Shown: positions 3,748 through 24,404 of the stretch, one piece after another
Position numbering within the stretch: the stretch's first letter is position 1
Layout: each line of letters starts with the position of its first letter
Source: an uncultured Bacillota bacterium
GTDB taxonomy: Bacteria; Bacillota_I; Bacilli_A; RF39; UBA660
Direction of reading: 5' to 3'
NCBI GenBank assembly: GCA_900313725.1
Contig: OMSK01000099.1
Coordinates: forward strand, 1-42,212
DNA length: 42,212 nucleotides
Notes under the pieces: model-generated
What the model saw: only the letters and a program-made list of their open reading frames with translations
Told to the model about the DNA's origin: nothing
Database searches by the model: none
Position numbers and translations under genes: made by a program

Positions 3748-4434
3748 TTAATTACCTTTCATTAAATTATTTTCAAAAAAACTAAAGTATTTATTTTTTC
3801 CAATAATAATATGATCATCTATTTTAATACCTAATAAAGTTCCTGATTTAATTAAATTATTAGTTAATTCTATATCATTTTTTGAAGGTGTTATATTACC
3901 AGTTGGATGATTATGAATACATATAATAGAAACTGCTCCAACTAAATATGCTTCTTTAAATATTTCTCTTGGATGAACTGTACTATAATTTAATGTACCT
4001 TTAAATAACATTTTATTTTTTATTACTTTTTTACTACTATCCAAATATATACAATAAAAATATTCTTGTGTTTCATCTTTTAATAAATCATTAAAATAAG
4101 TAAATACTTTATCTGAATTAGTAATTTTTATATTGTTTATTGTATCTATCTTTTTATTCATTCTTTTACCTAATTCTATACAAGCAATTATAGTAGATGC
4201 TTTTACCTTACCTATTCCTTTTATTTTTATAATTTTTTCCATATTTACATTAACTAGTTCATGGATATCATAGTTTTTTAGTATTTCTAATGATAATTCT
4301 TTTACGCTTTTTTCTTTTGTACCAGTTTTTAATATTATTGATAATAACTCTTCATTATTTAGTGTTTCCACTCCATTATTTAATAATCTTTCAATAGGAC
4401 GTTCTAGAAGTGGTAAATCCTTAATCTTTGTCAT
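3748..4434 (-). CDS. radC: RadC-family JAMM-like protein (UPF0758)
   Basis: HhH-like N-terminus (IKGIGKVKAS) and HNHPTGNITPSKNDIELT JAMM motif. Confidence 0.9.
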   Translation of the reverse strand: MTKIKDLPLLERPIERLLNNGVETLNNEELLSIILKTGTKEKSVKELSLEILKNYDIHELVNVNMEKIIKIKGIGKVKASTIIACIELGKRMNKKIDTINNIKITNSDKVFTYFNDLLKDETQEYFYCIYLDSSKKVIKNKMLFKGTLNYSTVHPREIFKEAYLVGAVSIICIHNHPTGNITPSKNDIELTNNLIKSGTLLGIKIDDHIIIGKNKYFSFFENNLMKGN

Positions 4435-4882
4435 TAATCATCAACTCCTCATATTTACTTAGAACTTGATTTTCAATTGACCTTATAACCTTTGTATCAG
4501 TTGTTTCTAATAATAAATTATCATATTGTTCTAATACTGTTAAAAAAGCAACATCTGATATAAAAATTTCCCTTATATATATATCATACCCTATAGACTT
4601 ATAGAAATCCTGCAATGTTTTTAAATTTTTTTTATTTTTAGTTATTCCAATATAAGAATAATACATATTATTTTCTTTAGTATATATATAATATGGAGTA
4701 TTTTTCATTGATTCTTTCATTGATTCTTCACTAGAATATACACCAGCTTGTAAAAAATAAAGATTTTCTCCTGTAAGAGATACTACATCTGTATCAGTTC
4801 TATATTGTTTAAGCATAAAAGTACCCATAAAAAAACCAACTAATATACATAATACTACTGGAAAAATATTTTTTAATTTCAT
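4421..4882 (-). CDS. Membrane-anchored protein with a possible SPOR-like domain
   Basis: N-terminal TM. LQAGVYSSEESMKESM...YSYIGITKNKKNL..L resembles a SPOR beta-alpha-beta repeat. Weak call. Confidence 0.4.
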   Translation of the reverse strand: MKLKNIFPVVLCILVGFFMGTFMLKQYRTDTDVVSLTGENLYFLQAGVYSSEESMKESMKNTPYYIYTKENNMYYSYIGITKNKKNLKTLQDFYKSIGYDIYIREIFISDVAFLTVLEQYDNLLLETTDTKVIRSIENQVLSKYEELMINDKD

Positions 4883-4933
4883 ATTATCACCAGTTTTATT
4901 ATATTGTATTAATTGGTATTATTTTGTCGAATT

Positions 4934-6355
4934 TTAGTATTGAATACCCCAAATTACATGATGTTTAGCATCACTACCACAACATACACATTTACCTGTA
5001 ATTAATGGTTCATCTACTATACATCTTGATTTACATCCCTTTATTTCTTTTATTTTTGTTTCACACTCAGTATTTCCACACCAATCTGCATGTATAAATC
5101 CAGGTTGAGTATTTAAGATTTTTTCCATTTCCGTTAAATCTTTAGCTGTAAATGTTAAACTATCTCTTCTTTCTAATGCTTTATTATACATATCTTTTTG
5201 AATTGTTTCTAATAATTCTTTAACATATTTAACTACATCAATGTTTAAATCTTCAGTATATTTTTCACTTGTATCACGTCTAGCAAATGTGATTTTATTA
5301 TTTTCTAAATCTCTTGGTCCAATTTCAATACGAACTGGAATACCATTTACTTCTGCTTCTGCGAATTTAAATCCTGGAGATTTATCAGTTTTATCAATAT
5401 ATGTTACTACATCATTATTATTTAATTCTGTATTTATTTTTTCACATAATTCAAATACTTTATCATTATTACCGATTGGAATAATTACTACTTGTTTTGG
5501 TGCAATTCTTGGTGGTAATACTAGTCCTTTATCATCTGAATGAACCATAATTAGTCCACCTATCATTCTTGTTGTTGTACCCCATGATGTTTGATATACA
5601 AATTCTTGTTTATTTTCTTTATTTAAAAATTTAACATCATATGCTGTACTAAATTTTTGTCCAAAATAATGAGATGTACCTGCTTGTAGGGCAACACCAT
5701 TATACATTAATGCTTCATTAGTTAATGTATATTCAGCACCCGCAAATTTTTCTTTTTCAGTTTTTAAACCAGTAATTGATGGTATAGCAAGTATTTCATG
5801 ATGGAACCATTTATATACCTCCATCATTTGATCTGTTTCTTTAATTGCTTCTTCTTTTGTAGAATGTGCTGTATGTCCTTCTTGCCATAAGAATTCTCTT
5901 GATCTTAAGAATGGTCTTGTTTCTTTTTCCCATCTGATTACATTGCACCATTGATTATATAATTTTGGTAGATCACGATATGATTTAATATGATCTTTAT
6001 AATAATCACAGAACATTGTTTCACTTGTTGGACGGAATGCTAATCTTTCTTCTAATTCTTTAGAACCACCCATTGTTATCCAAGCAACTTCAGGTGCAAA
6101 TCCTTGTACTAATTCTCCTTCTTTTTTTAATAAATTTTCTGGAATTAATACTGGCATTTGACAATTAACATGTCCTAATTCCTTAAATTTTTTATCTAGT
6201 ATACTTTGCATTTTTTCCCATATAGCATATCCATTTGGTTCAATTGCAATACATCCTTTTACTGAAGTATAATCAGCTAGTTTTGCAGCTTTAACTACAT
6301 CAGTATACCATTTAGCAAAATCCACATCTCTACTTGTTATTGAATCATTTTTCAT
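4934..6355 (-). CDS. proS: Prolyl-tRNA synthetase, archaeal/eukaryote-like type (no INS editing domain, C-terminal zinc domain)
   Basis: 473 aa with class IIa motifs (FRPTSE, RSREFLWQEGHT, GTSH). C-terminal CGNTEC...CVCCG cysteine cluster, ending in Tyr (..WGIQY). Strong RBS AGGAGG. Confidence 0.93.
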   Translation of the reverse strand: MKNDSITSRDVDFAKWYTDVVKAAKLADYTSVKGCIAIEPNGYAIWEKMQSILDKKFKELGHVNCQMPVLIPENLLKKEGELVQGFAPEVAWITMGGSKELEERLAFRPTSETMFCDYYKDHIKSYRDLPKLYNQWCNVIRWEKETRPFLRSREFLWQEGHTAHSTKEEAIKETDQMMEVYKWFHHEILAIPSITGLKTEKEKFAGAEYTLTNEALMYNGVALQAGTSHYFGQKFSTAYDVKFLNKENKQEFVYQTSWGTTTRMIGGLIMVHSDDKGLVLPPRIAPKQVVIIPIGNNDKVFELCEKINTELNNNDVVTYIDKTDKSPGFKFAEAEVNGIPVRIEIGPRDLENNKITFARRDTSEKYTEDLNIDVVKYVKELLETIQKDMYNKALERRDSLTFTAKDLTEMEKILNTQPGFIHADWCGNTECETKIKEIKGCKSRCIVDEPLITGKCVCCGSDAKHHVIWGIQY

Positions 6356-6365
6356 AATATCCTCC

Positions 6366-6560
6366 TATACAAAAAAGGATAGTACATAAGGAGTCATATA
6401 GACGGTACCATCCTTTTATTTACTTATTTTTGATAACGGTATTACCCGGAAATTATTAATTTCTCTCAGAAGTAGGAATTTATATATCATTATATTAGTT
6501 TACACCTTCCACTAACTCTCTTTAATAACTTTATATAAATTATGTCTTCATCAACGATTT
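6366..6560 (-). promoter_or_regulatory. T-box riboswitch leader of proS (candidate CCU Pro specifier)
   Basis: Minus RNA contains an AAAAGGAUGGUACCGUC T-box-like motif. This overlaps a 12-bp terminator, AAAGGAUGGUAC/GUACUAUCCUUU, followed by Us. Stem I base UUAUUAA/UUAAUAA has AGAGAG and UGAGAG elements. CCU followed by A (plus 6474-6476) sits in the putative specifier loop. Confidence 0.8.
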
Positions 6561-6568
6561 CTAAATAC

Positions 6569-9262: not shown

Positions 9263-11966
9263 TTCCTAGATATGTTTTAGATATTTTTATTACTTTATTT
9301 AATTCTTTAACTAGATTAGTAAAATCATTTGTAATAAATTCTAATTCTTTATTTTTAGAAGCCATTTCATGTTTATAAGCTGTATCCGCTAAATCATTAA
9401 ATCCTAAGTATCTAGCATCACTCTTTAATGCATGTACTTCAATACTATAATCTTCTAAATTACTTGTATTTTTATATAATTTTAATTTATCAAATCTATC
9501 TTTAATATTGTGTAAAAATTCCATTAGTGTTTCATTATACATTGATTTATCACCAAGTAATTCTAAAGCCTTATCTATATCTACTCCATTATCTTTTAAA
9601 TATTTTATATTATCTTTTGTTTCAGTTACATATACTGGAGAAAATTGAGTAGTTGATTCTATTTTTTTAGAATATGGCTTATCATTAGTAGATTCTTCTT
9701 GTTTTTCATTTTCAAACAAACTTCTAAGTACTCTATCTAATTCTTCTTTATCAATTGGTTTAGATAAATAATCATTGAATCCTTTAGCTAAATATTCTTC
9801 TTTTTGGCCTTCAATAGCATTCGCAGTTAATATTACAACTGGAGTATTAAAATTAGCTTTTTCTTTTAATTTTTCATATGTTTCTACTCCACTCATATTA
9901 GGCATCATATCATCCATAAATATTAAATCATATGTAGAACTATCTACTTTGGATAAACATTCATCACCACTTAATGCTTCATCAATAGTAGGTTTATATT
10001 TTTTTAGAACCATAGAAGCAACTTTAATATTTAATTTATTATCATCAACTACCAAGAATTTTTTATTTGATAAATCTAATTCCTTTTGTTCTATATTTTC
10101 AATAGGTACTTCTTTTTGTTCAACTTTAATATCATTAGTTTTACTATTTTTAAATACTTTAGATAATTCTTCATGTAATTTATCTCTATCTATTGGTTTA
10201 GATAAATATCCATCAAAGCCTTGATCTAAATAATTCTTTTCCATACCTGATATTGCATTAGCTGTTAAAACTACTACTGGTGTATTAAAGTTTTCCATTT
10301 GTTTTAATCTTACTAATGTTTCAGATCCACTCATTCTAGGCATCATATCATCAAGTAATATTAAATCATATTTATTATTTTTTACTTTTTCTAAACAATC
10401 CATACCACTTTCTGATAGTTCTAATGTTGGTTTATATTTTTCTAATACCTTAGTAGCAACTTTTAAGTTTAATTTATTATCATCTACTACTAATATCTTT
10501 TTACCAGTTAAATCTAAATCAACAGTAGTATCAATTACTTTACTTTCTACTACTTCTTTACTTATTTTTTGATCGATTGCTACAGTAAATTTAGAACCTT
10601 TTCCATATGTAGAATGAACTACAATTTTACCACCCATTAAATCAATTAATTGTTTAGTAATAGCAAGACCTAAACCAGTACCTTCTATTGTTGTATTTCT
10701 GTCTTCATCAAGTCTTTGGAATTTAGTAAATAGTTTATTTATATCATCTGCTTTAATTCCTCTACCTGAATCTTCTACGCTTACAATTAGTCTACAAATA
10801 TTATCATTTTTTACACATTTAACACCAAAATCTACATATCCTGTATCTGTATATTTAATAGCATTTGTAAGTAAATTAACAATAATTTTCTTTAAATTAG
10901 CTTGGTCACCTACTAATGTAGAAGGAATATCTTCTGCGATATGTATTCTATAATCTAGTGGTTTTTCACCAAGACGTCCTTTACCAAGTTTTACTATACC
11001 ATCAAGTAATTCATATACATTATATGATGAATTATGAATTTCAATTTTACCTGCTTCAATTTTACTAATATCTAGTATTCCATTTACTATTTCAAGTAAT
11101 GTTTGTGAAGCATTTACTATATCATTAGCATTTTCTTTAGCTTCATCAAGTGAATTAGATGTTTGTATATATTCACTAAATCCTACAATAGCGTTTAGTG
11201 GAGTTCTAATTTCATGAGACATACTAGATAAGAAATCGCTTTTAGCTCTATTTGCTTTATCCGCTTGTTCTCTAGCAATGTTTAGTTGTTCAATCATTTT
11301 AATATCTGGATTTTCAATTGTAAAGTACATTAAGAAAGTTATAAAAGTTTCTGTCGAAGTCATTAATAATAAATCCGGCGATATTTTTTGAATTATCATT
11401 ACAAATGTTGCTAAAAAAACAAAAGCAATTAATGGTAAATACTTCTTAGATTTTAATTTTTTAACATTAACGATCATTGAAGGAACTAAAATAAACACAT
11501 AAATAATTGATAATAAATAAACTAAATCAACACTTAATCCATACGTATATATTCCACGATTATCATTTACATAATTTATTGGTAATATTGATAATGCTAT
11601 TAGTGAAACTATAAACACAATTACTGATAATAATATTATTTTTTTAAATTTTTCATTTTTAATTTTATCACTTTGCTTTTCATCTATATTTAGTATTATT
11701 AAAATATATGCAACCATAAGTAAAAGCCACACAATTAAATAAACCAAGTATGATTTACAAACTATCGTATTTATAATAGGATAATCATTAGCATATTTTA
11801 TACTAAAAAAACAACAAATATGTAATAATTGTCCAATAAAATTAGATATAATCATATATTTATATATTTTATTTTCATAGTTATCTATTCTTTTTTTAGT
11901 AAAATAAACTATTAATAATAAAATTATATCTAATACACCAAATAATTCGAAAAATAATAGTTTCAT
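9258..11966 (-). CDS. Hybrid sensor histidine kinase: ~6-7 TM sensor, HisKA, HATPase_c, two REC domains, C-terminal HPt
   Basis: H-box SHEIRTPLNAI. N/G boxes (LLTNAIKYT, DSGRGI, GTGLGLAI). Two receiver modules (LVVDDNKLNLKV..LLDDMMPRMSG..LTA..K and LVVDDNKLNIKV..FMDDMMPNMSG..LTA..K). HPt histidine in HALKSDARYLGF. The start is set at the ATG at 11966 (RBS AAGAGGGTG) because the track start is a GTG. Confidence 0.9.
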   Translation of the reverse strand: MKLLFFELFGVLDIILLLIVYFTKKRIDNYENKIYKYMIISNFIGQLLHICCFFSIKYANDYPIINTIVCKSYLVYLIVWLLLMVAYILIILNIDEKQSDKIKNEKFKKIILLSVIVFIVSLIALSILPINYVNDNRGIYTYGLSVDLVYLLSIIYVFILVPSMIVNVKKLKSKKYLPLIAFVFLATFVMIIQKISPDLLLMTSTETFITFLMYFTIENPDIKMIEQLNIAREQADKANRAKSDFLSSMSHEIRTPLNAIVGFSEYIQTSNSLDEAKENANDIVNASQTLLEIVNGILDISKIEAGKIEIHNSSYNVYELLDGIVKLGKGRLGEKPLDYRIHIAEDIPSTLVGDQANLKKIIVNLLTNAIKYTDTGYVDFGVKCVKNDNICRLIVSVEDSGRGIKADDINKLFTKFQRLDEDRNTTIEGTGLGLAITKQLIDLMGGKIVVHSTYGKGSKFTVAIDQKISKEVVESKVIDTTVDLDLTGKKILVVDDNKLNLKVATKVLEKYKPTLELSESGMDCLEKVKNNKYDLILLDDMMPRMSGSETLVRLKQMENFNTPVVVLTANAISGMEKNYLDQGFDGYLSKPIDRDKLHEELSKVFKNSKTNDIKVEQKEVPIENIEQKELDLSNKKFLVVDDNKLNIKVASMVLKKYKPTIDEALSGDECLSKVDSSTYDLIFMDDMMPNMSGVETYEKLKEKANFNTPVVILTANAIEGQKEEYLAKGFNDYLSKPIDKEELDRVLRSLFENEKQEESTNDKPYSKKIESTTQFSPVYVTETKDNIKYLKDNGVDIDKALELLGDKSMYNETLMEFLHNIKDRFDKLKLYKNTSNLEDYSIEVHALKSDARYLGFNDLADTAYKHEMASKNKELEFITNDFTNLVKELNKVIKISKTYLGK

Positions 11967-12013
11967 ATTACACCCTCTTATTTTTTTATTCTTACCATAT
12001 ATATATAATATCA

Positions 12014-12045
12014 CAAAAAAAAAAGATAAACAATTGTTTATCTTT
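12014..12045 (-). terminator. Intrinsic terminator of the ANL gene
   Basis: Palindrome AAAGATAAACAATTGTTTATCTTT (12022-12045) overlapping the stop, followed by a U10 run on the minus RNA. Confidence 0.65.
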
Positions 12046-21511: not shown

Positions 21512-21569
21512 ATTATCACCATTTAAATTATATCATTTTACATAATAAAAAGATACAATTATTATAATT

Positions 21570-21597
21570 AAAAGGGGTACAAATTGTACCCCTTTTA
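21570..21597. terminator. Bidirectional intrinsic terminator downstream of trpS
   Basis: AAAAGGGGTACA-A-TGTACCCCTTTT: a GC-anchored perfect stem flanked by A4 and T4 runs. Confidence 0.8.
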
Positions 21598-21617
21598 ATA
21601 TTTTTTCCTAACTAAGT

Positions 21618-21707: not shown

Positions 21708-22703
21708 TTAATTATCATATTTTATTCCCATTTTTTCTCTTACTTCAAGTAATTTTTTAGAAGCTACTTTTTCTGCTTCAATAGCTCCATTATGTAGTAT
21801 TTTAATTAATTCATCATTATATCTATATTTTTTATATTTTTCTTGTATAGGTAATATAAATTTTTCTAATAAATCAGCTAAATCTTTCTTAAATGTACCA
21901 TAATTAGAATCTTTATATTTATCTTCTATATCTTTTATACTTTTATTTGTAATTGATGCATAAATAGATATTAAATTAGATATACCCGGCTTTTTTTCTT
22001 CATCAAAATATATTTTATTTTCACTATCTGTTACTGCACTCATTATCTTCTTTTTAGAATTATTAATATCATCTAATATAAATATTGTTCCTTTATCATT
22101 TATCGGAGATGATTTTGACATTTTTTCATTAGGATTTTGTAAATTCATTATTTTATGACCTATCTCTGGCACATAATAATCTGGTAATTTAAACATATCA
22201 CCATATCTTTTATTCATTCTCTCTCCTATATCTCTAGTTATTTCTATATGTTGTTTTTGATCAGATCCAACTGGTACTATTTCAGCATCATATAAAAGTA
22301 TATCAGCTGCCATTAAGGTTGGATAAATAAGTAGCCCTAAATCTATTCCATCTTTACCTTGTTTTTCTTTCTTTGATTTATATTGTGTCATTCTTGATAA
22401 TTCTCCTACTCGGCATTGAAATGCGACTAAAAATCCTAATACACTATGTTCATTAACATCACTTTGTACAAAGAAATTAGTATATTTTGGATCTACTCCA
22501 CAAGCTAAATAAGTTGCGGCTAAATCTAGAATTGTATCATGAATTTTTTTAGGTTCTTGATATGAAGTTAAACCGTGTAAATCCGCTATAAATATAAATG
22601 AATTATGTTCTTTTTGTAATTTAACAAAGTTTTTAATTGCTCCTAAATAATTACCTAATGTAAAATTTCCTGTAGGTTGAACACCAGTAATCATTGTTTT
22701 CAT
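21708..22703 (-). CDS. trpS: Tryptophanyl-tRNA synthetase
   Basis: 331 aa with the class I HIGH-region variant TGNFTLGNYLG, KMSKS present, and a typical TrpRS N-terminus GVQPTG. Confidence 0.95.
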   Translation of the reverse strand: MKTMITGVQPTGNFTLGNYLGAIKNFVKLQKEHNSFIFIADLHGLTSYQEPKKIHDTILDLAATYLACGVDPKYTNFFVQSDVNEHSVLGFLVAFQCRVGELSRMTQYKSKKEKQGKDGIDLGLLIYPTLMAADILLYDAEIVPVGSDQKQHIEITRDIGERMNKRYGDMFKLPDYYVPEIGHKIMNLQNPNEKMSKSSPINDKGTIFILDDINNSKKKIMSAVTDSENKIYFDEEKKPGISNLISIYASITNKSIKDIEDKYKDSNYGTFKKDLADLLEKFILPIQEKYKKYRYNDELIKILHNGAIEAEKVASKKLLEVREKMGIKYDN

Positions 22704-22717
22704 TTTGATCCTTCTTT

Positions 22718-23743
22718 CTAATTATAATATTCCATTATTTTTTTATATAAATCTTTTGTTTTTTCTAATGAATCTATTAATATGTATTCATTTTTTTGAT
22801 GTGATGTATCAGGACCTGGTCCAAGTATTATAAAGTTTTTATCAATAAATGATCCTTCTGTCACATAACATCTTGTTTCTTTTTTTGATGAAATATTCTC
22901 TAAAAAATCTATATTACTATTATTTAGTTTAGGTTTTATATTTACACATATAGTTAATTTAGAATCATATTTTTTTAATATACTTTTTATTTTATTTATA
23001 ATTTCATCTAAATGTTTTTCTTTAACTATTCTAAAATCCATGCTTATTTCACATTTACCCGCAAGAGAATTAATAGTTTCTCCACCCTTAATCATACCAA
23101 TATTCATAGTAGTATAAGGTATTTCAAAGTCTTCTACTTTATCTTTTTTTAATTCTTCATAATAATCTTTTATTTCATTAATAAATTTGATACATTCATC
23201 AATTGCGCTTATACCCTTATCTGGTGTTGAAGAGTGACATTTTATTCCATAGAATTCTATTTGTAATCCTAAAGCTCCTTTTGTTCCATATACAGGTATA
23301 TTATTAGTAGGTTCACATACAATAATATTATTAGATTTTACTCTATCTTTAATTGTTTTTATTCCTTCAAATCCTATTTCTTCATCATTAGTAAAATATA
23401 GTGATATTTTATTCTTAGTTAAATCTACTTCTGATATAGCTTTTAATATAGAAGCTAATCCACCTTTCATATCACAAGCACCTAATCCAATTAACATGTT
23501 ATCTATTTCTACTAATTCAAATGGATTTCCATCCCATGATTCATAATCAACTGTATCAGTGTGTCCCATAAAACCTATATTAGTATTCTTACTATTATAA
23601 GCTATTAGACATTTATCAATTCTTTCTATAGTAAAATTATAATCTTTTAAATATTTTTCAATATAATCCATTATTTCTTTATTTTGTTCATCTTTAATTG
23701 TATTATAACTAACCAATTTTTTTAATATTTCTTTTGTTTCCAT
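22718..23743 (-). CDS. M20-family metallopeptidase/deacylase (ArgE/DapE-like)
   Basis: GHTDTV, ACDMKGG, NDEEIG and EPT motifs; 341 aa. Only 14 nt upstream of trpS, so probably co-transcribed. Confidence 0.85.
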   Translation of the reverse strand: METKEILKKLVSYNTIKDEQNKEIMDYIEKYLKDYNFTIERIDKCLIAYNSKNTNIGFMGHTDTVDYESWDGNPFELVEIDNMLIGLGACDMKGGLASILKAISEVDLTKNKISLYFTNDEEIGFEGIKTIKDRVKSNNIIVCEPTNNIPVYGTKGALGLQIEFYGIKCHSSTPDKGISAIDECIKFINEIKDYYEELKKDKVEDFEIPYTTMNIGMIKGGETINSLAGKCEISMDFRIVKEKHLDEIINKIKSILKKYDSKLTICVNIKPKLNNSNIDFLENISSKKETRCYVTEGSFIDKNFIILGPGPDTSHQKNEYILIDSLEKTKDLYKKIMEYYN

Positions 23744-23776
23744 AATAATCTCCTTTCATCATATAATTTGCTTATA

Positions 23777-23810
23777 CAAAAAAAGAATACAGATTTACCT
23801 GTATTCTTTA
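23777..23810 (-). terminator. Intrinsic terminator inside the leader of the M20-trpS operon (attenuator)
   Basis: Minus RNA AAAGAAUACAG-GUAAAU-CUGUAUUCUUU followed by Us. It ends about 35 nt before the M20 start codon. Confidence 0.7.
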
Positions 23811-23872
23811 TATTTATATTTTATTCATACAGGTATAAGCAATACTAAAACCACTTATACCCATAACGATTT

Positions 23873-23932
23873 TTATCGCTTTGTATAAGTGTTACCTATA
23901 TGACGCCAAGTTCTAATAATTAAATTTTTCAT
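23873..23932 (-). CDS. Candidate Trp-containing leader peptide MKNLIIRTWRHIGNTYTKR (19 aa)
   Basis: RBS AAAGGAAG lies 8 nt before the ATG. There is one UGG codon (codon 9). Codons 15-17 form the first segment of a chain of mutually exclusive hairpins leading to the terminator. Confidence 0.4.
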   Translation of the reverse strand: MKNLIIRTWRHIGNTYTKR

Positions 23933-23978
23933 ATAAATAACTTCCTTTCTTATCTAAATATTAACATAAATATTTATA

Positions 23979-24404
23979 TTAGTCAATTTTTTTATTTATT
24001 TTCTTATTTACAATATCAAAATATAATTTAAATGAATCTGGGAAAGTTAACTCTTCAGGTGAAGGTAAAGTATCTGATAACCTAATTTGTTCCATTTCAT
24101 ATTCTTTAGGTAACTGTCCCATTTCTTCTATTTCACAATAGCAAAGTAATCCATATGTACTAATTTTATATATAGAAACAGGTATAACTTTTATTTTAGT
24201 TGCTCCAGTTTCTTCATACATTTCTCTTTTAGCTGCTTCTTGCCATGTTTCTCCTTCTTCTATATGTCCGCCTGGAATTTCCCAACCTTTTCTTTTTTTA
24301 TTATAAGCAAACACAAATTTATCTTTATATTTACTTACGCATACAACTCTAGTAAATTCTTTTTCATCAACAGTTCCTAAATCATAAAAATTAATTTCAA
24401 ACAT
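23979..24404 (-). CDS. NUDIX hydrolase
   Basis: NUDIX box GGHIEEGETWQEAAKREMYEETGA. Confidence 0.9.
   Translation of the reverse strand: MFEINFYDLGTVDEKEFTRVVCVSKYKDKFVFAYNKKRKGWEIPGGHIEEGETWQEAAKREMYEETGATKIKVIPVSIYKISTYGLLCYCEIEEMGQLPKEYEMEQIRLSDTLPSPEELTFPDSFKLYFDIVNKKINKKID

Follow-up and report, generated by a model that had tools for sequence, protein, structure and literature searches.

A probable leader-peptide transcription attenuator with a Trp codon upstream of an M20-trpS operon in an uncultured Bacillota bacterium

A 42,212-nt contig from an uncultured low-GC gut bacterium of the Bacillota (OMSK01000099.1, positions 1 to 42,212 of the forward strand, the whole of which is referred to here as the window) carries on its minus strand a gene for an M20 metallohydrolase followed by trpS, which encodes tryptophanyl-tRNA synthetase (TrpRS). 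Our comparative and thermodynamic analyses indicate that the leader preceding these genes is likely a ribosome-mediated (leader-peptide) transcription attenuator gating the M20-trpS operon. The original prediction for this region described a 19-codon open reading frame (ORF) with a ribosome-binding site (RBS) and a single UGG at codon 9, four segments (R1 to R4) able to pair alternately, and a terminator. The ORF lies on the minus strand as described, and the four segments, their pairings, and the terminator were all found exactly where they had been placed (Table 1). The relay is larger than these four segments, however, as a helix over the leader AUG (P0), a hairpin over the leader stop codon (P2), and a copy of the R2 motif after the terminator (R6) had been missed.

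In the mechanism we propose, transcription would begin and a ribosome would load on the 19-codon ORF while RNA polymerase advances. When charged tRNA-Trp is scarce, the ribosome would stall with UGG or the next codon in its A site, and scarce tRNA-Arg at that next codon, CGU, may stall it likewise. The edge of the stalled ribosome would lie about 5 nt short of R1, leaving R1 to pair with the emerging R2, aided by the nested P2 hairpin. R3 would then be free to capture R4, the 5' arm of the terminator, so that no terminator would form and transcription would read through into M20 and trpS (the ON state). A ribosome translating to UAA would instead sit over R1 and P2, allowing R2:R3 to form; R4 would then pair with the terminator 3' arm and transcription would stop (the OFF state). 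From the pairings and folds described below we infer that the ribosome stalls, that translation and transcription are coupled, which way and how strongly the operon responds, and that Trp is the physiological signal.

Leader ORF and RNA helices in related loci

The window M20 protein has many relatives at 66 to 75% identity, and four relatives from genome records were metagenome-assembled genomes labeled uncultured Bacilli, Bacillales, or Mycoplasmatota. The leader was present in all eight M20 orthologs that were chosen regardless of leader sequence (L001 to L004, L124, L126, L127, and L129, the last being the window's own contig). A scan of metagenome contigs with the DNA pattern GTATAAG-N8-20-CTTATACCTGTATG returned 43 contigs, 40 of which carry the leader, the other three being unrelated GC-rich chance matches. 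The distinct leader peptides numbered 40 in total; the ORF and footprint-fold statistics below refer to 36 unique leaders and the pairing statistics to a MAFFT alignment of 40 leaders. Among distant M20 homologs (25 to 48% identical; Clostridia and Proteobacteria; L005 to L080), nhmmer found no related leader, and Rfam scans of 16 distant homologs (L005 to L017 and L020 to L022) found no T-box. Only two of eight gene-call tables contain an M20-type leader; the L129 leader is uncalled, and for L124 an overlapping 34-aa ORF is called in its place. The leader ORF has probably gone without annotation as a leader peptide.

The possibility, raised with the original prediction, that orthologous leaders lack the ORF was not borne out, as an RBS, an AUG, and an open frame of 17 to 22 codons were intact in all 36 unique leaders. 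The variable part between the AUG and an invariant CAU (His) codon was 24, 27, 30, or 33 nt long, only multiples of three. The leaders were stop-free in frame in 36 of 36 cases, with the other two frames stop-free in 7 and 15 of the 36, and the leader stop codon was always located 4 to 13 nt 3' of R1 and 8 to 16 nt 5' of R2. The in-frame openness and the multiple-of-3 lengths support a translated leader rather than an ORF arising by chance within a structured RNA.

The C-terminal half of the leader peptide was nearly invariant within the M20 family, as might be expected if the conserved peptide (W-R/H-H-I-G-N-T-Y-T) were a ligand-sensing arrest peptide that stalls at or near the stop codon, with the hairpins reading out the stall. 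TnaC, which senses free Trp, and SpeFL, which senses ornithine, are examples of such peptides, and a stall at the stop codon here would mask R1 and favor termination, a sensible direction at high Trp. However, synonymous changes are absent from the invariant codons, all of which lie within P0 or R1, so that RNA pairing accounts for their conservation. In L126, the peptide is altered to QNIN (becoming SWQNINNTYAYR) with P0 pairing kept, indicating that the constraint acts on the RNA. Furthermore, paralogous leaders of the same architecture described below encode unrelated peptides (MSNSKKWWQVRS; ...IHHNSLHLLIRH), neither the final residues nor the spacing from W (Trp) to the stop codon is constant, no Pro or Asp is conserved, and the terminator is intrinsic rather than Rho dependent. 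A TnaC-like peptide was rejected on these grounds, and we regard any arrest peptide here as very improbable.

Exact inverted repeats in the window leader measured 9 nt for R1:R2, 8 nt for R2:R3, and 9 nt for R3:R4, so that R2 and R3 each have two mutually exclusive partners. The 207-nt leader folded at -53.2 kcal/mol versus -29.8 kcal/mol for shuffled sequences (z = -6.7), with none of 200 shuffles as good. Across the 40 leaders, 99% of alignment cells were paired for P0 (12 bp between the AUG region and the His-Ile-Gly-Asn codons), 100% for R1:R2 (8 bp), 99.8% for R2:R3 (11 bp), 100% for the antiterminator core ACCUGUAU:AUACAGGU formed by R3:R4 (8 bp), and 89% for the terminator stem (11 bp). 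In a control in which the 3' partners were shifted by 1 to 3 columns, just 28 to 58% of cells were paired. Changes in P0 were all wobble compatible, and four terminator pairs showed compensatory AU<->GC changes. While the outer terminator pairs drift by compensation, the core UACAGG, whose partners must include R3 as well as the 3' arm, does not change. A "complementary triple" of this sort has been described for classical attenuators (PMC1262725).

The remaining elements of the leader were more variable. P2 stems differ by leader (AUCGA/UCGAU, AUCAG/CUGAU, AUCGG/CUGAU, CUCGAG/UUCGAA, and AUCGAC/GUUGAU), and because the MAFFT register was unreliable for P2 (41.7% paired), we judged this hairpin sequence by sequence. 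RNAfold gave no stable P2 hairpin in 6 of the 36 leaders and a very weak one (-0.5 to -2 kcal/mol) in several more. An inverted-repeat search found R6 to be complementary to both R3 (10/10) and R1 (10/10). At the R6 position, most orthologs have GGUAUAAGC or AAGCAAUG(C), and another clade has AAGCAAUGC; in L099, an altered R3-side loop (GCGUUG) has its match in the AACGC of R6. Our guess is that R6 probably re-pairs with R3 in read-through transcripts, and that P0 probably limits initiation to the first cotranscriptional ribosome or else acts as a pause hairpin.

Table 1. Features of the M20-trpS leader and flanking genes in the window
Feature	Position	Strand	Remark
NUDIX gene upstream of leader	23979-24404	minus	
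Promoter-like TTGACT-17-TAATAT, TG before -10 hexamer	23958-23986	minus	Consensus match only
Leader RBS AAAGGA	23943-23948	minus	10 nt 5' of AUG; nearly invariant in 40 leaders
P0 5' arm GUUAUUUAUAUG	23930-23941	minus	Contains leader AUG; pairs with 23891-23902
Leader ORF MKNLIIRTWRHIGNTYTKR plus UAA stop	23873-23932	minus	19 codons
Sensor window, UGG plus CGU	23903-23908	minus	UGG (Trp, codon 9) at 23908-23906; CGU (Arg) is codon 10
P0 3' arm CAUAUAGGUAAC	23891-23902	minus	Codons 11-14, His-Ile-Gly-Asn
R1 ACUUAUAC	23883-23890	minus	Codons 15-17; pairs with R2
P2 hairpin AGCGAU-AAAA-AUCGUU	23865-23880	minus	Over UAA stop; nested inside R1:R2
R2 GGUAUAAGU	23853-23861	minus	Partner is either R1 or R3
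R3 GCUUAUACCUGUAU	23827-23840	minus	Pairs through its 5' part with R2 and through its 3' part with R4 (antiterminator)
R4 AUACAGGUA	23796-23804	minus	Overlaps terminator 5' arm
Intrinsic terminator AAAGAAUACAG / loop / CUGUAUUCUUU plus U run	23778-23809	minus	11-bp stem, 23809-23799 / 23792-23782, then seven U; 32 nt to M20 AUG
R6 UUUGUAUAAGCAA	23768-23780	minus	Post-terminator copy of R2 motif; directly 5' of M20 RBS
M20 metallohydrolase gene	22718-23743	minus	First regulated gene
trpS	21708-22703	minus	14 nt 3' of M20, no terminator between

Ribosome position and putative sensor codons

To follow how a ribosome affects the choice of fold, leaders were folded up to just before the terminator 3' arm with nt -15 to +13 around the A-site codon forced unpaired. 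When the A site was placed on UGG or CGU, the minimum-energy fold of the window leader contained R1:R2 enclosing P2 together with a 9-bp antiterminator. Placing the A site on the stop codon gave P0 and an R2:R3 helix of 12 bp, and the antiterminator shrank to a 5-bp remnant. Among the 36 leaders, stalling at the UGG position or one codon later gave R1:R2 in 32 and an antiterminator of 7 bp or more in 24, and R2:R3 formed in 33 with the A site on the conserved His codon and in 35 with the A site on the stop codon. The switch logic in the original prediction, in which a stall at UGG leads to R1:R2 and the antiterminator and translation to the stop codon leads to R2:R3, was thus reproduced in silico for the window and across the 36 leaders. 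These folds also identify the two codons before the conserved His codon as the last stall sites that leave R1 free, and it is there that the unusual codons sit.

Of the 108 positions formed by the three codons before the invariant CAU in the 36 leaders, W occupies 28, R 30, H 19, and K 14, and neither W nor H occurs at any of the other 236 variable positions. Conservation of the Trp codon held in part. All seven leaders with trpS in the operon contain W (those of the window, L093, L081, L099, L101, L113, and L119), but W is present in only 29 of the 40 distinct leaders (72%). The 11 leaders lacking W carry HHH, RHH, RRHH, KHKHH, RRR, KRK, YYYY, or RYYH at the same place, suggesting that the sensor codons can be swapped. 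Tandem WW codons occur in L004 and in a paralogous leader directly upstream of trpS in L132. These runs of one residue at a fixed distance from the relay, including His runs before hisG, look like regulatory codons. Two leaders with Tyr runs, in L100 (265-447, minus; ...NNYYYYMGNTY...) and L103 (275-452, plus; ...CRYYHMGNTY...), each precede a weakly GNAT-like gene, and in L103 a 60%-identical M20 gene comes next.

The same attenuator might operate without Trp specificity, reporting general translation speed or starvation for Arg, His, Lys, or Trp, with UGG being one slow codon among several. The R, H, K, or Y codons of the W-less leaders fit such a role, as do the codons around the window UGG, which is flanked by AGA two codons before and by CGU and CAU. 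In addition, R1 is free in the models for a ribosome stalled anywhere 5' of the conserved His codon, and the M20 enzyme is ArgE/DapE-like. On the other hand, although W is the rarest of the amino acids, most leaders have it at this position and none has it elsewhere in the variable part. It is also found in every trpS-operon leader and is doubled in the leader directly before trpS, three operons contain tRNA-Trp, and homopolymeric runs (HHH before hisG, YYYY, and RRR) resemble amino-acid-specific sensors rather than generic slow sites. We therefore consider a nonspecific sensor unlikely for the window leader. Although the leader family as a whole is not Trp specific, Trp-tRNA limitation is most likely the signal for the window leader, as judged from its codons and linkage to trpS, with the adjacent CGU as a possible cosensor.

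Several points weigh against a Trp-responsive attenuator of the M20-trpS operon. The order leader-M20-trpS holds in the window, as in the original prediction, but trpS is absent nearby in most orthologous M20 loci and many M20 genes are apparently monocistronic. This distribution implies that the leader is attached to M20, which it would regulate, and that trpS is a recurrent addition. Textbook attenuators contain two or more regulatory codons, and with a single UGG in the window leader the dynamic range may be small. Moreover, the leaders without a Trp codon keep the whole RNA architecture, so that Trp codons are dispensable for its maintenance. The core helices of the relay are invariant within the M20 family, in part because our search pattern fixed R2 and R3, and the shuffle control was not exceeded for the ON structure; the within-family pair counts thus show conservation and not covariation. 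The ribosome footprint that we imposed is an assumption, and when no ribosome is imposed the ON and OFF folds differ little in energy (21 of the 36 leaders have the antiterminator fold as their minimum), so that an untranslated leader might read through. The unconstrained minimum for the window is a three-way junction (R1 with GUAUGA, P2, and R2:R3), possibly an OFF or resting state.

Two other foldings were rejected. The three-way junction does not qualify as a conserved state because pairing past GUAUG is not conserved, and a long-range pairing between codons 10 to 13 and the sequence before the M20 RBS, which appears in the full-length window fold, is absent even in the closest relative, L093.

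T-boxes and predicted paralogous attenuators

According to the original prediction, trpS is preceded by a leader peptide instead of a T-box. We detected no Rfam family in the leader, whether at the gathering score or at E <= 10, the best matches being meaningless and far below gathering scores, and a covariance-model search of positions 23650 to 24100 with the T-box model (RF00230) gave no match even at E <= 10. The check by cmscan for a T-box or other known riboswitch was therefore negative for the leader. The T-box that had been noted before proS in the same window was confirmed by its covariance model at 6386-6563 (minus), where the match spans the entire model with 63.6 bits (E = 1e-13). 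Because the gathering score is 93, a default Rfam scan misses it. The proS gene itself (4934-6355; TIGR00408, 558 bits) lies 3' of this T-box. The T-box motif GGTGGTACCGCG does not occur in the whole window with up to two mismatches; because the proS T-box carries GGAUGGUACCG, this motif search was too strict and the covariance-model search is the valid test. We also rejected a T-box-like UGGN between R2 and R3, as the loop there varies (UGGU, UGGA, UGAU, UGUA, and others).

Five relatives were sampled through TrpRS proteins of the window type (73 to 82% identical). Four of these have a T-box (84 to 105 bits) 5' of trpS, which in L134 precedes a PALP-family gene overlapping trpS, and the fifth, L132 (75% identical), has a WW leader peptide in place of the T-box. 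With T-boxes at trpS in close relatives and none in the window leader, the description "instead of a T-box" is literally true.

The T-box loci in L130, L131, L133, and L134 also contain a short W-containing ORF with its own RBS between the T-box terminator and the regulated gene (approximately 2420-2470, 2430-2480, 2445-2490, and 1270-1330, respectively), encoding MNNILLTKRWCINLY, MYILVKRWWCLND, MRIKRWCFNF, and MDNWDWNWNN.... Such an ORF may add to the T-box a second Trp sensor that works through translation. In L131, L133, and L134, the trpS T-box reads GAA-UGG-A, with UGG as the specifier, and in L130 (approximately 2240-2260) the same position reads GAA-UGA-G, which could reflect a shift in the alignment or hint at decoding of UGA as Trp.

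Three predicted paralogous attenuators were found in the sampled contigs. The L132 leader (2318-2500, plus) encodes MSNSKKWWQVRS, with tandem UGG UGG, and lies directly 5' of trpS; its segments are CACUUAC (R1), GGGUAAGUG (R2), CGCUUGCCC-AUGUG (R3), and CAUAUGGG (terminator arm). This leader switches in the same way as the window leader under footprint-constrained folding. In L113, a His-codon leader (11862-12036, plus; MYKRFIIQFIHHNSLHLLIRH) precedes hisG (139.7 bits versus a cutoff of 75.75), with segments GCACUUGU (R1), GGUACAAGUGC (R2), and GUGCUUGUAUC (R3) and with its own AUG-hiding helix, hairpin over the stop codon, and terminator. The third, a His-run leader in L132 (approximately 573-745, plus; ...RQHHHNNRHLLIRH, MSRQNSINRQHHHNNRHLLIRH), precedes another operon encoding an 89-aa protein, a protein with a possible phosphoribosyltransferase-like motif, and an LDcluster4 protein. 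In all three, every segment differs in sequence from its counterpart with the complementarities kept, and the paralogs thus supply whole-helix covariation for the predicted relay.

These paralogs also bear on whether the GUAUAAG/CUUAUAC motifs are sites for a trans-acting regulator (TRAP- or PyrR-like, or a repressor), with the ORF being incidental. Such sites could explain four copies of a 7- to 8-nt motif in alternating orientation that are invariant across orthologs. However, the paralogs change the motif (GUAAGUG and ACAAGUG) and keep its complementarity, which fits RNA-RNA pairing and not a protein site; a DNA operator consisting of palindromic GTATAAG/CTTATAC was rejected for this reason. 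The ORF evolves as a coding sequence with a conserved RBS, and the motifs extend over 120 nt of transcribed leader rather than lying at the promoter. TRAP sites consist of 9 to 11 (G/U)AG triplets located 2 to 3 nt apart and overlapping the antiterminator. The 207-nt leader has no such array, just four scattered GAG/UAG triplets and no run of five or more spaced repeats, and TRAP-type attenuation was likewise rejected. A trans-acting regulator is, in our judgment, extremely improbable, and we retain ribosome-mediated attenuation as the reading for the window leader. The refuting conditions listed with the original prediction were all checked or addressed, and none of them went against this model.

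The M20-trpS operon and its relation to known systems

The M20 protein matches Pfam Peptidase_M20 and M20_dimer and scores 210.6 bits on the NCBIfam ArgE model, under the cutoff of 297.7, with E. coli ArgE (7rsf) as the nearest solved structure. It is a predicted ArgE/DapE-family deacylase, falling below equivalog cutoffs. The window trpS matches TIGR00233 with 336 bits versus a cutoff of 176.75. Downstream of M20, the window and L093 share one TrpRS type (94% identical), and L081, L099, L101, and L113 have a second type that is 32% identical to that of the window and scores 216.8 bits on the trpS model. In L119, an M20-type leader is directly 5' of trpS. The order leader-M20-trpS-tRNA-Trp(CCA) is found in L081, L099, and L113 (e.g., L113 9358-11827), and a terminator follows the tRNA gene in L081 and L099. 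The L099 and L113 contigs each have another tRNA-Trp gene upstream that is almost the same in sequence (in L113, 70 of 74 nt match).

Other genes found 3' of M20 include a weakly GNAT-like gene in L002, L004, L112, and L124. In L109, a His-racemase-like protein (4130-4894, plus) is encoded 3' of M20 with a 2-nt overlap and scores 84 to 86 bits on HisR/CntK models, below their cutoffs; the L109 leader contains W and three His codons. Neither hisS nor argS was among the genes 3' of M20 behind W-less leaders. Together, the M20 partners (TrpRS, tRNA-Trp, and the GNAT-like and His-racemase-like proteins) would point to a role in the release or salvage of amino acids, Trp included.

A broader reading seems plausible to us, if somewhat short of probable. 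In it, the leader would be one instance of a modular, lineage-wide attenuator cassette of uncultured, very AT-rich Bacilli, built on one scaffold in which a helix hides the AUG, the relay has five segments, and a repeat follows the terminator. The cassette would be retargeted by swapping two or three codons before a fixed stem (W/WW, HHH, RRR, or YYYY) and would alternate with T-boxes at trpS, and the partners of M20 (two TrpRS types, tRNA-Trp, and a His-racemase-like gene) would mark the ArgE/DapE-family deacylase as a starvation-induced salvage enzyme for amino acids, specifically Trp. This repeated linkage to TrpRS and tRNA-Trp offers a functional lead for an otherwise unannotated ArgE/DapE-like deacylase, and the swapping of sensor codons on a fixed RNA scaffold makes a convenient system for learning how attenuators change specificity.

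The window leader resembles E. coli trpL and the his, phe, thr, leu, and ilv leaders in having an ORF with putatively cognate codons, alternative hairpins, an intrinsic terminator, and a predicted choice by ribosome position, but there is no similarity in sequence or to Rfam models. In contrast to the four segments of trpL, the relay has five (R1, R2, R3, and the two terminator arms), and as a result a stalled ribosome must leave segment 1 free and a terminating ribosome must cover it, a parity opposite to that of trpL. The window leader further differs from trpL in its single UGG, the AUG-hiding P0, the hairpin over the stop codon, and the post-terminator R6. The target is also different, a deacylase with an aminoacyl-tRNA synthetase (aaRS) instead of a biosynthetic operon.

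T-boxes dominate the control of aaRS genes in Firmicutes, including Bacilli, and leader-peptide attenuation is rare there. To our knowledge, only a His-codon leader before hisS paralogs of bacilli and several leaders of biosynthetic operons have been reported since 2005. In that year, a survey listed no Firmicutes aaRS gene then known to be under classical attenuation (PMC1262725). For Streptomyces, the same survey predicted such attenuators ahead of trpS/trpS2 and leuS, and it also covered the pheST (pheM) attenuator of E. coli (PMC1262725). The window leader is like these in the predicted leader-peptide control of an aaRS gene by putatively cognate codons; they belong to other phyla and are unrelated in sequence, and the window trpS stands second, behind the M20 deacylase. 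Leader-peptide attenuators with His codons have been described for the hisS paralog/hisZ of the B. cereus group (PMC2965389) and for his operons of Erysipelotrichales, Peptostreptococcaceae, and the B. cereus group (PMC9413887), and leader-peptide attenuation has also been reported for ilvBNC in S. aureus (PMC5794164). The Firmicutes His leaders are likewise leader-peptide attenuators of low-GC Gram-positive bacteria that replace T-boxes, differing in their runs of three to five His codons and in governing histidine genes. The L113 hisG and L132 His-run leaders appear to be of this kind and share their architecture with the window leader.

Compared with a T-box (RF00230), the window leader would serve the same gene, signal (uncharged versus charged tRNA-Trp), and output (terminator versus antiterminator). 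The sensing differs, as a T-box binds tRNA directly to RNA without translation and the window leader would sense through translation. Our literature search found no Trp-codon leader described for trpS or an M20 gene in Firmicutes. The proposed mechanism, classical attenuation, is a known one, and the element is absent from Rfam. One type of trpS appears under three controls in close relatives, namely a T-box, a WW leader directly upstream, and a W leader shared with M20, making trpS a clean natural exchange between two ways of sensing tRNA charging.

Two leaders depart from the common architecture. In L126 (2828-3003, plus), a divergent leader (MRNFRLTSWQNINNTYAYR) keeps P0, R1 to R3, and an R6-like segment without a terminator, and AUCUCUUCU is able to pair with the M20 RBS AGAGGAGAU; this leader may be a translational version of the attenuator. 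L101 (2536-2950, plus) has tandem leaders before M20-trpS, the second with a degenerate P0 and an ORF (MKNFKINLNWRRYQ) that ends just before R1.

At the window locus, the -35 hexamer of the promoter-like site overlaps the NUDIX stop codon, and orthologous leaders have a TTGACT/TTGACA and TATTAT-like pair at the same distance. Judging from this site, the transcript should start approximately 8 to 10 nt 5' of the leader RBS. Promoter-like matches are not above chance in the AT-rich window (33 found versus 28.9 expected; G+C content, approximately 22 to 24%), and terminator-like sites are (4 found versus 0.4 expected in our scan). An AU-rich spacer separates R3 from the terminator. A weak promoter-like match (9/12) inside the 3' end of M20 (22724-22751, minus) could supply basal trpS expression. 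Downstream of trpS, a palindromic GC-cored hairpin with flanking A and T runs (21567-21599) is probably a bidirectional terminator for the operon. Elsewhere in the window, the ribosomal protein L21 leader (RF00559; 891-958, minus; 51.2 bits) is the sole Rfam match above its gathering score.

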